Shown here: piece after piece, positions 1 to 6,776 of the stretch
Position numbering within the stretch: the stretch's first letter is position 1
How the letters are laid out: each line of letters begins with the position of its first letter
Source of the DNA: Sulfurimonadaceae bacterium
GTDB taxonomy: Bacteria > Campylobacterota > Campylobacteria > Campylobacterales > Sulfurimonadaceae
DNA: 6,776 nt
Direction: 5' to 3'
Assembly: GCA_041548245.1 (NCBI GenBank)
Contig: JBFESZ010000093.1
Coordinates: 1 to 6,776 of the forward strand
Position numbers: made by a program

Positions 1-3000
1 AAAAAGACAGGGAACAGAGAAGATGCTAACTTCATCACTCGTATTACTGCATCTGTAAACGGTAAACTTGTATACGAAGTATCTACAAGTCAATTCCTTT
101 CTAAAAACCCTATCTTCAAGTTCCAGTTCAAAGGTGCTAACGCTGGCGATACTCTTGAGATGACGTGGGTTGACCGCAAAGGTAACACTGTTACTGACAA
201 AGCCCAAATCAAGTAATCCACTTGATCTTCCCGAAGAAAGATGACATAAGTGCATCTTCTCTTCAAAAACTCCATAACACACTTCAAAATAATTCAATAT
301 ATAATAAGTCTATACTCAAGTTATCTCAAAAAAAAGATTGTTTGATTGTAGACTCTGCTAAGGACAAGAAATGCACAAAAAAGAAGTAGGCCAAGTCGTA
401 AAAGTATTTATCTCGATTAAGGATGAAAATAACCAAACGAAGACAATCCTTAAAGATGAGATTTCATTGGATACACAAGGGGTTCAAGATGACAAATTCT
501 ATTCTAAAGATTCCATGCGCTCTATTCTGCTAAGCTCACTTGAGAGTTATGATATCGCAGAGAAAAATAATATAGCAATGCCATACGGTTCACTTGGGGA
601 AAACATACTCATGGATTATAATCCTTATCACTTGAACGTTGGGGACCAATTGCAAATCGGCGAAGTCATCCTGGAGATAACTCAAAACTGCACGCTCTGC
701 AAAGGGCTATCAAAAATAGATACTAAAGCTCCGAAGCTGCTAAAAGAGCATAGAGGTATCTTTGCCAAAGCTATTACCAATGGAACCATTCAATCAGGAG
801 AGAGCGTTTACATTTAATCATTAAGATTATCTAGATAAAAATAGTGCTACAATTTCCACTTACATTTAAAAGCCCTGTAGTGTCAATGTAAGATTTACAC
901 TATAAAATTAACAAGAAGGAAACCTATGAAAAAGATTTATACAATCTTAGTAAGTGCACTTGTCGCATTAACGTTTACAGCATGTGGTGGCAAGACTCCA
1001 GGTGTCGTCGGTGGTAATGATGGACAAGATATCCGAATCTTTACTGTTGCTAACCCGGACGGAAAAATCACAACTAAAACAATCGAAAAAGCTTTCGAAG
1101 AAGCTGGCTTTACTATTGATGGTAATAACAATATGAACGCTCCGTTCAAACCACGTTTTGGTTCAACTTATTATGAGACTTATCACCTTTTCACTGTGCA
1201 TAGCTCTAAACACGTATTAGCACTGGTTAAAGACTACCCAAGCATCGGTCTTCTTTCTCCACTAAGTATGTCTCTGTACTCTAATAGAGATGATGATATG
1301 TCAAACGGTAAAACAATGAGTATCTCATCATTGACGCTAAGAGGCATGTCTCGTATCACTGGTATTCCTATGGAGAACCCGGTTCTTATCTCATATGCAA
1401 AATTTTTAGAAGAGACTCTTGCAAAAGCACTTCCAGGTGGCCACTTTAAAGAGCTGAACTACGAAAAAGTGACTGATATGAGCCAAACGCTTGCGACATC
1501 ATTTGAAGTAGAGTTCGGTGGTGAAAGTGAAGATGAGATTCTTGGTGCGAAGGATGATTTCGAAGCTGAATTTGAAGGTGAAATGGAACCAATCGGTTTT
1601 CTTTTCCCAGGTTTTGTTGACTTCAAAAGTGAATTTGTAGAAGGTGGTTATGATGCATTTGACTATTATGACACTTACTCAGTTTGTAAGCTTGATGTCA
1701 TCTTTCCAATTCATCAGAAACACCCAGAAGTAGGTGCATTTGCTCCATGTACTTTCTATGTCTATAAAAAGAAAGATGAAACAACAACTAAAATGGGGTT
1801 CCCATCGGTTGATAACTGGATTAACTCAACAGATCTAGACATCACGGACACAGAAACTTTCGGTACATTGATCGAAGCACAAAAACTATTTGAAGATACT
1901 GTTAACGCAATTACACAGTAAGACCTTTCTAATAGATATGCTACTTGGTAACAAGTAGCATACCCTTTCATTATAAACTCCGTTTTTTATTTTCATACAT
2001 ATACAAAAGAAGCTATACTAATTGACTAAAATCATTTTATTTTCATTCTAGAAAATAAAATATCAAAAGGACCAATATGAAGTTTCTCTCAAAACTAATT
2101 ATCCCGGCACTGATGACTATCAGTCTTTTTGCAGCACCTCAAGATGGTGATGTCAAGTTTACTCCCTCTAACAACAAAGACTTAGCCGTTATCTATACTT
2201 TTGATGAGCCAAATGAGGATGAATTTTTTAAATTTGTGAAAGAAGACCTCTCAAAATTAGGTTTTTTCGTCAATGACCCTCACCACAATGTTCAGGCAGT
2301 TTATGAACAACGCTACGGTAAGACATGGCTGGAAAATATAGCATTCTCATCATTGGTTAATGACAAAGTTGTGCGCCCGCTTATCAATAAAGACCCGCGT
2401 ATTGGTGCGTTTACACCATTTAACCTCCTAACCTTTAGAAAAAAATCCGATAGTCTCACAACTATTGCACATATGACACCACAGGCTATGCTCGATATTC
2501 TTGAGATCAATGATCCTGAAATCACTGAACCGTTCATCAAAATGTTTGAACCACTTGATGCAGCCATAGCATCAAAGTTAGGTGGCAAGAAATCTTATAT
2601 CAAGCTTGAAGGGCGTGCAGAAGATACGATGCTTAACTTTGAGATCCCATTTGAAGAGCCTGAAGATATTGATGACTTTATGGATGAGTTTCAAGAGACT
2701 ATTGAGTCAGCTTTTGAAGCAAAAGAGTATATTATCGCCGGTTTTTATAACCTGAAAATGAGTCTTAACTCAGATGATGATGTCATGCCTGGCTATACTA
2801 CATTCTGGCTATTTGATCTGTGTCATATCGAATTCTCATACAATGTATTTGATGGTGAAAAAGCTGTACCCTTAGCAGGTGTATTTGCACCGTGTTCAAT
2901 GTATGTTTATGTTAAAGAGGGCGAGAATAAAATTGTCATAGGCTTACCGTCTCTTCGTGCATGGAGTGGTGCATTAGGCATTACAGAACCACAAAAATTG

Positions 3001-6000: not shown

Positions 6001-6776
6001 CGTAGCGCTAATAGGGTTTTCACCATAGTTAAAACCTGCACGTAATGCAAGGTCGTCCATACGGATCTCAGCACCTAAAGCGTACACATCCTGATTTCTC
6101 CAACCAAAATCTTGATAACCGCGAGCATTTTCCCAACGGATGTTTTTCCAGTCAGCTGTTAATGAAATATCCCCCTCTGTCCAATCAATACCAAGGCCAT
6201 ACTCTGCAGGCTGCTCAAGCTTGTCAGTAATTGCTCCTGCTGGGAATTGGAACGCAGCAGCAGCTGTTGCTATCTGGCCCTTGTACTCCATCTCAATTGA
6301 TGAATGATAAGTCGCACCTAGCGTAATACCGGTGTCCTCAAGCGTATAAGCTGCACCGACTTCAATACCCACACCAAAGCTTGAAGATGACCCATTTCCG
6401 ACTTGGTTATACCCTGCCAATAAATCTCCATCTGGCGCATTAAATGAAAGATCCAGTGAACCGTACATCATAACAGGAGCAATACCGACTGACCAATTGT
6501 TTTGTCCATATGCCATCGGAACAGAAAATTTAAGTAACAATAGATTCGATCGCATTGCATATAGGCCCATTTGTCCATTTGTTGCATAATTAGGGTCTAA
6601 AGGCTTATCTCTCCAGTCTGTTCCCATTCCAGCTGAACCAAACATACTCACGCCAACAGCATAACCGTTCCCTATATTTTCAGTTATAGCAACATAGGGA
6701 ATGACATTATGCTTTGCTTCACTTGTATTGTCTTGTGCTCCGCCTGTACCACTTGCACCGGCTGTTGTCTTTACAT

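Follow-up and report, generated by a model that had tools for sequence, protein, structure and literature searches.

The window, a whole MAG contig of 6,776 nucleotides (JBFESZ010000093.1, assembly GCA_041548245.1) from a marine Sulfurimonadaceae bacterium, opens within soxZ. The genes that follow raise the question of whether they serve the uptake or handling of hydrophobic sulfur for SoxYZ, as the survey's finding had proposed. In the available sections of the Sulfurovum paper (PMC10045233), no membrane protein is confirmed for S0 transport, and the Campylobacterota outer-membrane proteins so far reported in connection with S8 belong to the OprD-like porins rather than to FadL. Neither FadL nor DUF302 is mentioned in the accessible portions of the Campylobacterota S8 literature that was searched. 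The SulRS paper (PMC12936845) does not cover the window genes, and six guessed Suden locus tags were not found in the literature. In S. indicum, growth on S0 lowers dsrE 2.2-fold relative to thiosulfate (supplement Table S2); IMZ28_RS08575, the guessed tag of the gene next to dsrE, is not present in this table, which holds differentially expressed genes only.

Gene content and layout of the window

The contig consists of the tail of soxCDYZ and two separable, conserved modules (Table 1). Module A (soxZ-MOSC-D1-D2) forms the tail of soxCDYZ. Module B is an operon convergent to Module A, with the order FadL/TodX-like channel-D3-P277(-PAS). The window had been described as a single extended sox cluster; its gene order instead gives two convergent units. 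The genes of that description and all of the Pfam E-values quoted for them (three for DUF302, one each for MOSC and Toluene_X) were reproduced exactly.

Table 1. Features of the window, with their positions, strands and supporting matches.
Feature	Position	Strand	Evidence and remarks
soxZ, 3' part, 71 codons	1..216	+	PF08770 4.2e-20; TIGR04490 77.3 bits (cut-off 76); 5' part beyond contig start
MOSC-domain protein, 148 aa, cytoplasmic, without signal peptide	371..817	+	PF03473 2.4e-10
D1, tandem-DUF302 periplasmic protein, 331 aa, lipobox-like N-terminus	926..1921	+	DUF302 1.8e-8
Terminator-like hairpin 3' of D1, 11-bp stem, weak T tail	1937..1962	+	Consensus scan only
D2, tandem-DUF302 periplasmic protein, 338 aa	2077..3093	+	DUF302 1.2e-6
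Stand-alone PAS-domain protein, 138 aa, cytoplasmic	3156..3572	-	PAS 9.6e-13; NifL-type PAS 1e-13
Terminator-like hairpin directly 3' of P277 stop, 12-bp stem, T-rich tail	3669..3696	-	Consensus scan only
P277, 277-aa secreted protein of predicted tandem-DUF302 fold, without cysteines	3695..4528	-	No Pfam family; fold match
D3, tandem-DUF302 periplasmic protein, 333 aa, C253/C275 in C-terminal half	4525..5526	-	DUF302 6.6e-5
FadL/TodX-type outer-membrane channel, last 338 residues	5758..6774	-	Toluene_X 1.4e-20; 5' end cut by contig end

The remainder of the sox operon had been placed on contig C52, across a contig break, and was found there: C52 encodes SoxC (TIGR04555, 544 bits, cut-off 420) and the N-terminus of SoxY with its TAT signal, and has a gene for a c-type cytochrome where soxD is expected. 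The soxZ of the window aligns to soxZ of locus L003, and synteny with L003 places C52 approximately 390 bp from the window start. SoxZ, SoxY, SoxC and SoxD are encoded together, with the contig join resting on this synteny.

The MOSC protein scored 40.9 bits against PF03473 (cut-off 22.7) and matched the C-terminal part of the MoaC/MOSC fusion model NF011069 (6.9e-12). A MOSC-D1-D2 run on one strand was present in 12 of 77 loci, and D1 lay directly 3' of MOSC in 14. MobA and MoaC genes were located upstream of soxC in L047. In L095, a locus from a genome without a SoxZ match, they lie upstream of the D-family gene. The protein had been listed among the candidates for sulfur handling. Because it is cytoplasmic and matches the MoaC/MOSC model, and given the MobA and MoaC genes of L047 and L095, molybdenum-cofactor handling for SoxC fits better, and this is probably its role as predicted from sequence.

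The PAS protein, a putative cytoplasmic sensor, is encoded by a gene that was missing from the survey's finding; in 9 of 37 loci a PAS gene lies 3' of P277 on the same strand. By consensus scan, the window contained six terminator-like sites (4.7 expected) and 24 promoter-like sites (20.2 expected), the latter no excess over chance. No Rfam family matched in the window.

The D proteins, P277 and the channel

Against Pfam DUF302 (PF03625, gathering cut-off 23 bits), D1, D2 and D3 scored 34.6, 28.7 and 23.2 bits, respectively, so that D3 barely exceeds the cut-off. Fold comparison was carried out for the D3 and P277 models only among the window proteins. In the AF2 model of D3 (pLDDT 91.5), residues 176-328 resembled 1q9u (Z 11.0, rmsd 1.9, 128 aligned) and residues 22-163 resembled 7tj1 (Z 9.8, rmsd 2.3, 131 aligned). 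The family profile had been said to hit solved DUF302 proteins with each half. This is borne out by fold in the D3 model; by sequence, the profile matches solved DUF302 with its C-terminal half only (1q9u, E 0.0065).

The two nearly invariant cysteines noted earlier were both present in 126 of 127 family units. They lie in the C-terminal half, and align with Cys positions of 1Q9U. The N-terminal half of the window D proteins carries Phe or Leu at the position matching C275. The sole loss of both cysteines was in L095 (genome G276, without a SoxZ match). Each D protein is predicted to hold two DUF302 folds, with the canonical Cys pair in the C-terminal one only. In the tree, D1 groups with D4, a further paralogue group, as the sox-operon members, and D2 forms a 19-row clade beside D3 and the fused forms; D1/D4 and D3/D2 are separate superclades. 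D2 and D3 are 35% identical.

P277 had been set apart from the three DUF302 proteins as a separate 277-aa secreted protein. The three D proteins stand as described, and P277 is, by its predicted structure, a fourth tandem-DUF302-fold protein of the window, which is new here. It was placed by fold comparison because sequence methods failed: P277 gave no Pfam family at E values up to 0.1, no match to PDB sequences below E 0.8, and only 68.6% probability against the D family by hhalign. In its AF2 model (pLDDT 87.4), residues 30-138 resembled 1q9u (Z 10.8) and residues 163-277 resembled 7tj1 (Z 10.6). P277 has no conserved Cys, and no conserved Cys or His site was seen among its orthologues. A lipobox-like N-terminus was present in 29 of 37 orthologues, which suggests that P277 is usually a lipoprotein.

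P277 and D3 are closely coupled. The end of D3 and the start of P277 share 4 bp in the window and in 34 of 39 loci, and P277 is the next gene downstream of D3 in 36 of 37. In 12 other loci the two are joined in a single polypeptide, as D-P277 (8 loci) or D-D-P277 (4 loci), and multi-unit D/P277 forms of up to 1345 aa were found in the protein library. The overlap and fusion of their genes indicate that D3 and P277 are made together, and that they probably act together as putative partners.

The channel scored 73.7 bits against PF03349 (Toluene_X; cut-off 29.7). The similarity to CymD and TodX in the PDB reported earlier was recovered: its profile matched TodX (3.3e-31) and CymD (6.4e-31) over nearly their full length, and also TbuX and E. 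coli FadL (approximately 1e-17). By these matches, the nearest relatives of the window protein are the TodX/CymD/TbuX channels, which carry small hydrophobic molecules. It is 72% identical to the 442-aa orthologue of L003 and lacks approximately 100 N-terminal residues, including the predicted hatch, which lie beyond the contig end. Orthologues, including that of L003, have a C-terminal Phe and an N-terminal hatch segment with a nearly invariant N55-P56-A57, a motif that we take to mark the hatch of the FadL family. FadL paralogues had been thought numerous; this genome has two FadL-family genes only. The other adjoins an AMP-binding enzyme gene, an arrangement that would be expected for fatty-acid uptake.

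Linkage to sox and to the channel across genomes

Both modules draw on a single Campylobacterota family, whose members are periplasmic DUF302 proteins of pseudo-dimeric (tandem) build. The wide spread of this family, given earlier as 43 of 61 genomes and 19 of 23 genera, was confirmed in a larger set: 81 of 101 Sulfurimonadaceae genomes and 22 of 23 genera. Among the cluster members of ten distant family representatives, the one taxonomic name given was a Sulfurovum.

The reported tie between the family and Sox was upheld by a coordinate tally: of the 36 genomes with the family, 28 have a member no more than 8.2 kb from soxZ. SoxZ was present in 33 of these 36, compared with 60 of the 301 genomes sampled across the class. 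A sox gene lay within 6 kb of 23 of 31 D1-type genes. D4 closes the other sox operon (soxXYZAB-porin-MBL(SoxH-like)-thioredoxin-DsrE-like-D4), so that one sox operon has D1-type members at its end and the other D4-type members. D2, which belongs to the channel-linked superclade, lies inside the sox module in 12 loci. The family was absent from 27 of the 60 SoxZ-positive genomes, and Sox therefore works without it. SoxZ was not found in 3 of the 36 genomes with the family; in two genomes without a SoxZ match, family genes retain both cysteines (L096, G232; L097, G277).

The proximity of DUF302-family and FadL-type genes noted earlier proved to be a regular arrangement: in 28 of 29 loci, the gene immediately upstream of the D3-type gene encodes the channel. 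This link survives changes in gene order, with D-P277>FadL and D-D-P277>FadL found in L023, L028, L032 and L049. To our knowledge, no periplasmic partner is known for the FadL-family channels described so far.

Module B was beside sox in 5 of 38 D3-type loci, in the window's own clade, and elsewhere was found among housekeeping genes. In L053 it lies beside the other sox cluster, a second, independent juxtaposition. The channel operon is a unit independent of sox.

Candidate functions and comparison with known systems

The proposal of hydrophobic-sulfur uptake or handling for SoxYZ is favoured by the ties of the family to Sox and to the channel; the scarcity of Module B beside sox and the probable role of the MOSC protein count against it. 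Two modules with a candidate role in hydrophobic-sulfur uptake are put forward tentatively, as a possible explanation that falls somewhat short of probable, with a substrate that we purely infer. The channel would let in a sulfur species that is small and non-polar (S8, or else short hydrophobic polysulfanes), which would be received by membrane-anchored P277 and by D3. The D3 Cys pair may open or carry it as protein-bound polysulfane, and the Sox-embedded paralogues (D1 and D2, and D4 elsewhere) may hand sulfane sulfur on to SoxY or serve SoxY in another way.

Stated more specifically, FadL(TodX-like)-P277-D3 would be the first dedicated elemental-sulfur import route: S8 would enter via the channel, P277 would take it from the outer membrane, the D3 Cys pair would open the ring to a protein-bound polysulfane, and D1, D2 and D4 would hand this to SoxY. 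This version is somewhat doubtful. If true, it would answer how neutrophilic sulfur oxidisers activate solid sulfur, and would give DUF302, a widespread fold, its first functional context. The locus offers a small, conserved candidate set: a channel, a lipoprotein and a protein with the Cys pair, together with the Sox-embedded paralogues of the last. The overlap and fusion of the D3 and P277 genes put the S8-import idea within reach of direct tests by gene knock-out, binding assay or structure. The link between DUF302 and Sox is not specific to S8, because single-domain DUF302 genes occur, according to the available text of PMC5037610, in the sox clusters of thiosulfate oxidisers without soxCD.

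An unlikely, though not negligible, alternative gives each of the two modules a role unrelated to that of the other. The Sox-embedded D proteins would then join a SoxW-like thioredoxin and a DsrE-like protein in thiol/disulfide or persulfide maintenance of SoxY, FadL-D3-P277 would take up a non-sulfur hydrophobic nutrient, and the place of this operon beside sox in the window's clade would be an accident of rearrangement. The few loci with Module B beside sox, the separation of D1/D4 and D3/D2 into superclades and the position of D4, 3' of thioredoxin and DsrE-like genes, are consistent with such a division. It is opposed by the identical invariant Cys pair in both superclades, by the presence of D2 within the sox module and by the independent case of L053. 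It is improbable that Module B serves a periplasmic molybdenum enzyme by importing an organic or organosulfur compound that is small and hydrophobic (e.g. dimethyl sulfide, dimethyl polysulfides or an aromatic). The resemblance of the channel to the TodX/CymD/TbuX aromatic-hydrocarbon channels points this way, as do the Sulfuricurvum-type loci, in which a rhodanese-like gene and type II DMSO-reductase alpha, beta and gamma subunits resembling ethylbenzene dehydrogenase (TIGR03478, 516.8 bits, cut-off 480.7) lie a few genes from Module B. However, two opposite-strand genes separate the DMSO-reductase cluster from Module B, the cluster is not in the window or the annotated Sulfurimonas-type loci, and it would stay unexplained why the family is linked to Sox.

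FadL-family channels classically carry long-chain fatty acids, and the profile match to E. coli FadL would suit Module B as an uptake route for fatty acids, octanoate or lipoate with periplasmic chaperones. This is distinctly improbable: no acyl-CoA ligase or lipoate gene adjoined Module B in the eight loci annotated, the genome's other FadL gene already has the AMP-binding neighbour, the Sulfurimonadaceae hosts are chemolithoautotrophs, and neither the Cys pair nor the Sox linkage is accounted for. Least probable of all is a role for the DUF302 proteins in metal or metalloid binding (Cu, As) or in envelope stress, with an indirect link to sulfur. A P277 paralogue on C96 does lie head-to-head with an arsR-arsC-arsB operon, but this neighbourhood was not seen in the five other stand-alone P277 paralogue loci (L100-L104), P277 lacks a conserved Cys or His site, and metal-resistance genes were not found in Modules A or B.

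The candidate sulfur-uptake set was compared with related systems. In the accessible parts of PMC5037610 and PMC11034169, DUF302 genes are likewise embedded in the sox clusters of Acidithiobacillia, Thiobacillus thioparus and Sulfitobacter, a dimer is suggested for their products, and the authors speculated on trithionate oxidation. Those proteins differ in having approximately 191 aa and one domain, their genes are flanked by soxA and soxB or by soxF and soxH, and no channel partner, P277 or fusion is reported in those parts. The OprD-like porins of Sulfurimonas and Sulfurovum (PMC10045233) and the FadL-type CT2230 of Chlorobaculum tepidum (bioRxiv 10.1101/172254) concern the same question, the crossing of the outer membrane by S8. 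An OprD-like or porin gene also occurs within the sox operon that ends with D4, and CT2230, proposed for hydrophobic sulfur chains, brings the FadL idea to green sulfur bacteria already; the available sections of both sources propose no periplasmic receiver.

The window channel shares with FadL, TodX, TbuX and CymD (PF03349; PDB 3BRZ, 6Z34, 3BRY, 1T16) a score above the Pfam cut-off; its orthologues carry the hatch segment, N-P-A and C-terminal Phe. It differs in always being paired with two secreted proteins of predicted tandem-DUF302 fold and in having no aromatic or fatty-acid catabolic genes alongside. Relative to DUF302 (PF03625; 1Q9U, 1J3M, 7TJ1), the same fold is predicted in both halves of D3 and of P277, and the conserved cysteines of the D proteins align with those of 1Q9U; here, however, two copies of the domain make up an exported pseudo-dimer, the Cys pair persists in a single half (D proteins) or is missing from both (P277), and P277 is not recognised by Pfam. 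New here are the identity of P277, the D3-P277 fusions, the D4 group and the Sox embedding of the tandem-DUF302 family.

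Contig layout, sox join and channel

The 6776-base window is the entire contig C93 of a 2.16-Mb MAG of 165 contigs; among named relatives, Sulfurimonadaceae MAGs are the closest. The genes of the survey's finding were real and its quoted Pfam E-values were all reproduced, but the PAS gene was missing from its list.

Features of the contig (D1 to D3, tandem-DUF302 periplasmic proteins; P277, 277-aa protein)
Feature	Position	Strand	Basis
soxZ, last 71 codons	1-216	+	ORF; NCBIfam SoxZ just over cut-off
MOSC protein, 148 aa	371-817	+	ORF; Pfam, NCBIfam
D1	926-1921	+	ORF; Pfam DUF302
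D2	2077-3093	+	ORF; Pfam DUF302
PAS protein, 138 aa	3572-3156	-	ORF; PAS match
P277, 277 aa	4528-3695	-	ORF; 4-bp overlap with D3
D3	5526-4525	-	ORF; Pfam DUF302
FadL-type barrel, truncated by contig end	6774-5758	-	ORF; Pfam

The minus-strand genes (FadL, D3, P277, PAS) converge on the plus-strand genes (soxZ, MOSC, D1, D2). Terminator-like hairpins 3' of D1 and of P277 point to the likely transcription units soxCDYZ-MOSC-D1, D2, FadL-D3-P277 and PAS, as predicted by consensus scans alone. The PAS protein best matched a NifL-type (flavin) PAS model, and its HNIVRHPDMP stretch resembles Aer/CetB energy-taxis PAS domains; the genome holds about 20 PAS paralogues.

Contig C52 encodes SoxC (544 bits to TIGR04555), the N-terminal part of SoxY, which has a TAT signal, and, where SoxD is expected, a c-type cytochrome. 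When both contigs were aligned to a 29.9-kb relative (L003), C52 fell approximately 390 bp upstream of the window. The MOSC protein lacks a signal peptide and matches the C-terminal portion of an NCBIfam model for a MoaC/MOSC fusion. MobA and MoaC genes lie upstream of soxC in L047 and upstream of a D-family gene in L095, a locus from a genome without a SoxZ hit. The simpler reading of the MOSC protein is a putative role in molybdenum-cofactor handling for SoxC. Relatives carry a thioredoxin-like (SoxW-like) gene (159-176 aa; L003:8982-9461) between soxZ and MOSC. In the window just 154 bp (217-370) separate those two genes, and no homologue of the thioredoxin-like gene was found in its genome.

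The channel profile matched TodX, CymD and TbuX at 1e-27 to 3e-31, versus approximately 1e-17 for E. coli FadL. In full-length orthologues the N-terminal segment contains a nearly invariant N-P-A, and the chain ends in Phe. The survey had cautioned that FadL paralogues are numerous, so that some proximity would be expected; this genome has only two FadL-family genes, so the proximity is not explained here by chance among many paralogues. The other one (C32, L108:3369-6218; Toluene_X 4.3e-58) is followed by a gene for a 513-aa AMP-binding enzyme, as would be expected for fatty-acid uptake.

Two separable modules

The survey had described one extended soxCDYZ cluster including the channel. Gene maps of 77 related loci resolved this into two separable modules, soxZ-MOSC-D1-D2 (Module A) and channel-D3-P277, in places with PAS (Module B), which meet convergently only in the window's clade (L003, L004, L051, L067, L068). 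Of 31 D1-type genes, 23 have a sox gene no more than 6 kb away and 23 have MOSC at that distance; of 38 D3-type genes, only 5 have a sox gene so close. MOSC-D1-D2 is a same-strand run in 12 loci, each with soxZ just upstream (12/12), and six loci also hold the thioredoxin-like gene absent from the window. D1 follows MOSC in two further loci whose next ORF is not D2. Ten Sulfurovum-type loci have D1 and MOSC side by side in opposite orientation, adjoining soxCDYZ.

Module B ties channel, D3 and P277 closely together as a three-part unit. D3-type genes are directly followed by P277 in 36/37 loci that extend far enough and directly preceded by the channel gene in 28/29, and a 4-bp overlap is present at 34 of 39 D-P277 junctions. 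The partners form single polypeptides in 12 distinct loci (D-P277 of about 700 aa in eight, D-D-P277 of about 1050 aa in four); library representatives include two- or three-unit forms of up to 1345 aa. The channel gene follows four of the fused genes, a changed gene order. Elsewhere the module sits among housekeeping genes (e.g. purM, coaE, dapF, prfA) or has an Mrp-like gene and a type II DMSO-reductase cluster nearby. Sulfuricurvum-type loci like L045:8223-14440 encode, downstream of FadL-D3-P277-PAS and beyond Mrp-like and LRV-repeat genes, a rhodanese-like protein together with the alpha, beta and gamma subunits of an ethylbenzene-dehydrogenase-like type II DMSO reductase. Next to fused D-P277 or P277 genes lies a gene for a secreted protein whose amphipathic repeats resemble apolipoprotein (Pfam Apolipoprotein scores under cut-off; L023:8273-9418, L096:2784-3770, L105:3949-4884), often with a cytochrome c' gene close by.

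A further paralogue group, D4 (approximately 305 aa), closes the other sox operon. Its typical order, judged by Pfam annotation at six loci and from ORF sizes alone at the other eight, is two-component system-soxXYZAB-porin (OprD-like)-metallo-beta-lactamase (SoxH-like)-thioredoxin-DsrE-like-D4. The family is systematically embedded in both sox operons. In a FastTree tree (unrooted, with some long branches), D1 and D4 formed one superclade, and D3 (a 40-row clade), D2 and the fused forms the other. At the end of one soxXYZAB operon (L089; G291:C1:1762000-1781000), a 3.9-kb unit is present as three tandem repeats. Each holds a metallo-beta-lactamase fragment and two cytochrome-thioredoxin genes, followed by a DsrE-like gene and D4, and all three encode identical D4 proteins.

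A class sample of 301 genomes was searched, and SoxZ-to-family distances were compared by hand from coordinates. The family occurred in 36 genomes (0/214 in the two largest families) and SoxZ in 60. SoxZ was present in 33/36 family-bearing genomes and absent from three; a family gene lay within 8.2 kb of a SoxZ hit in 28/36, and the two were on different contigs in 5/36. Within Sulfurimonadaceae, the wide spread reported by the survey (43/61 genomes, 19/23 genera) held, with figures now at 81/101 genomes and 22/23 genera. The family is compact, its own profile retrieving 262 of 1.84 billion representatives at E ≤ 0.001.

Same-genus genomes hold up to five family genes. In the window's own genome, C146 (L110:1-3032) aligns to window 2143-5178 as a second copy of D2-PAS-P277-D3 (68.5% nucleotide, 67-74% protein identity), and is either a true second locus or foreign DNA binned into the MAG (contamination 5.67%). 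C96 (L106:1957-2832, minus strand) encodes a 291-aa P277 paralogue (38% identity) head-to-head with a glyoxalase-arsR-arsC-arsB operon; ars genes were not seen at five other stand-alone P277-paralogue loci. C120 (L107:3931-4518) encodes a lipoprotein-like, single-domain DUF302 protein (195 aa), approximately 1.6 kb from a pyridine-nucleotide-disulfide oxidoreductase gene.

Folds and cysteines

An alignment-based AlphaFold model of D3 (pLDDT 91.5) contained two DUF302 folds: residues 176-328 matched 1Q9U (Z 11.0, rmsd 1.9 Å, 128 residues) and residues 22-163 matched 7TJ1 (Z 9.8). By sequence, the family profile was said to reach solved DUF302 proteins with each half; this was recovered for the C-terminal half (E 0.0065) but not the N-terminal half. 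P277 matched no family in a Pfam search, and its model (pLDDT 87.4) was a tandem DUF302 fold too (residues 30-138 versus 1Q9U, Z 10.8; residues 163-277 versus 7TJ1, Z 10.6). The window therefore encodes four exported tandem-DUF302-fold proteins, not three plus a separate secreted protein. PDB 7TJ1 is titled 'putative fluoride ion transporter CrcB', yet its 131-residue chain closely matches DUF302 folds, and the title looks like a misnomer.

Both cysteines of the D proteins are confined to the C-terminal half, where they coincide with the two cysteines of 1Q9U, and the pair is kept in 126 of 127 family units (from 123 proteins). Members of this Campylobacterota family are exported, pseudo-dimeric DUF302 proteins that share a single conserved Cys pair. 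The sole exception, a single case, comes from a genome without a SoxZ hit; this member (L095:5467 onward, G276:C12) has Ile and Phe in place of the cysteines and sits after MerR, MobA, MoaC, DUF493 and DUF6781-like genes. P277 lacks a conserved cysteine. A lipobox-like N-terminus occurs in 29/37 P277 orthologues versus 1/41 D3-type and 14/34 D1-type proteins.

Interpretation and comparison with known systems

The survey's observation was confirmed and sharpened. Of its uptake interpretation, the tie of the family to Sox and to the channel stood and the single cluster did not; hydrophobic sulfur as the substrate is what we infer. A small non-polar sulfur species is tentatively proposed for Module B because it would fit both Sox-related cysteine chemistry and a TodX-like channel, and we place it somewhat short of an even chance. 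D4 and D3 are both paired with an outer-membrane pore gene (OprD-like, FadL-like), which fits a periplasmic-receiver role. Weighing against the proposal, the family is absent from 27/60 SoxZ-positive genomes, and Cys-bearing members are retained in two SoxZ-negative genomes.

In the literature on DUF302, no assigned function and no mention of Campylobacterota sox clusters were found; excerpts of PMC5037610 and PMC11034169 place single-domain DUF302 genes in sox clusters of thiosulfate oxidisers. The published S8-responsive outer-membrane proteins (PMC10045233) are OprD-like porins; this and the single-domain DUF302 genes of thiosulfate oxidisers also weaken the proposal. No Sulfurimonas-FadL link in this sense was found in open full text, which excludes non-open work on S. 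denitrificans and strain CVO grown with S8. Among the papers that mention both FadL and elemental sulfur, only a Chlorobaculum preprint proposes a FadL protein for hydrophobic sulfur chains (bioRxiv 10.1101/172254). The channel-D3-P277 unit differs in that FadL-type uptake of the candidate substrate, a partly supported reading, would involve dedicated periplasmic partners and be tied to Sox.
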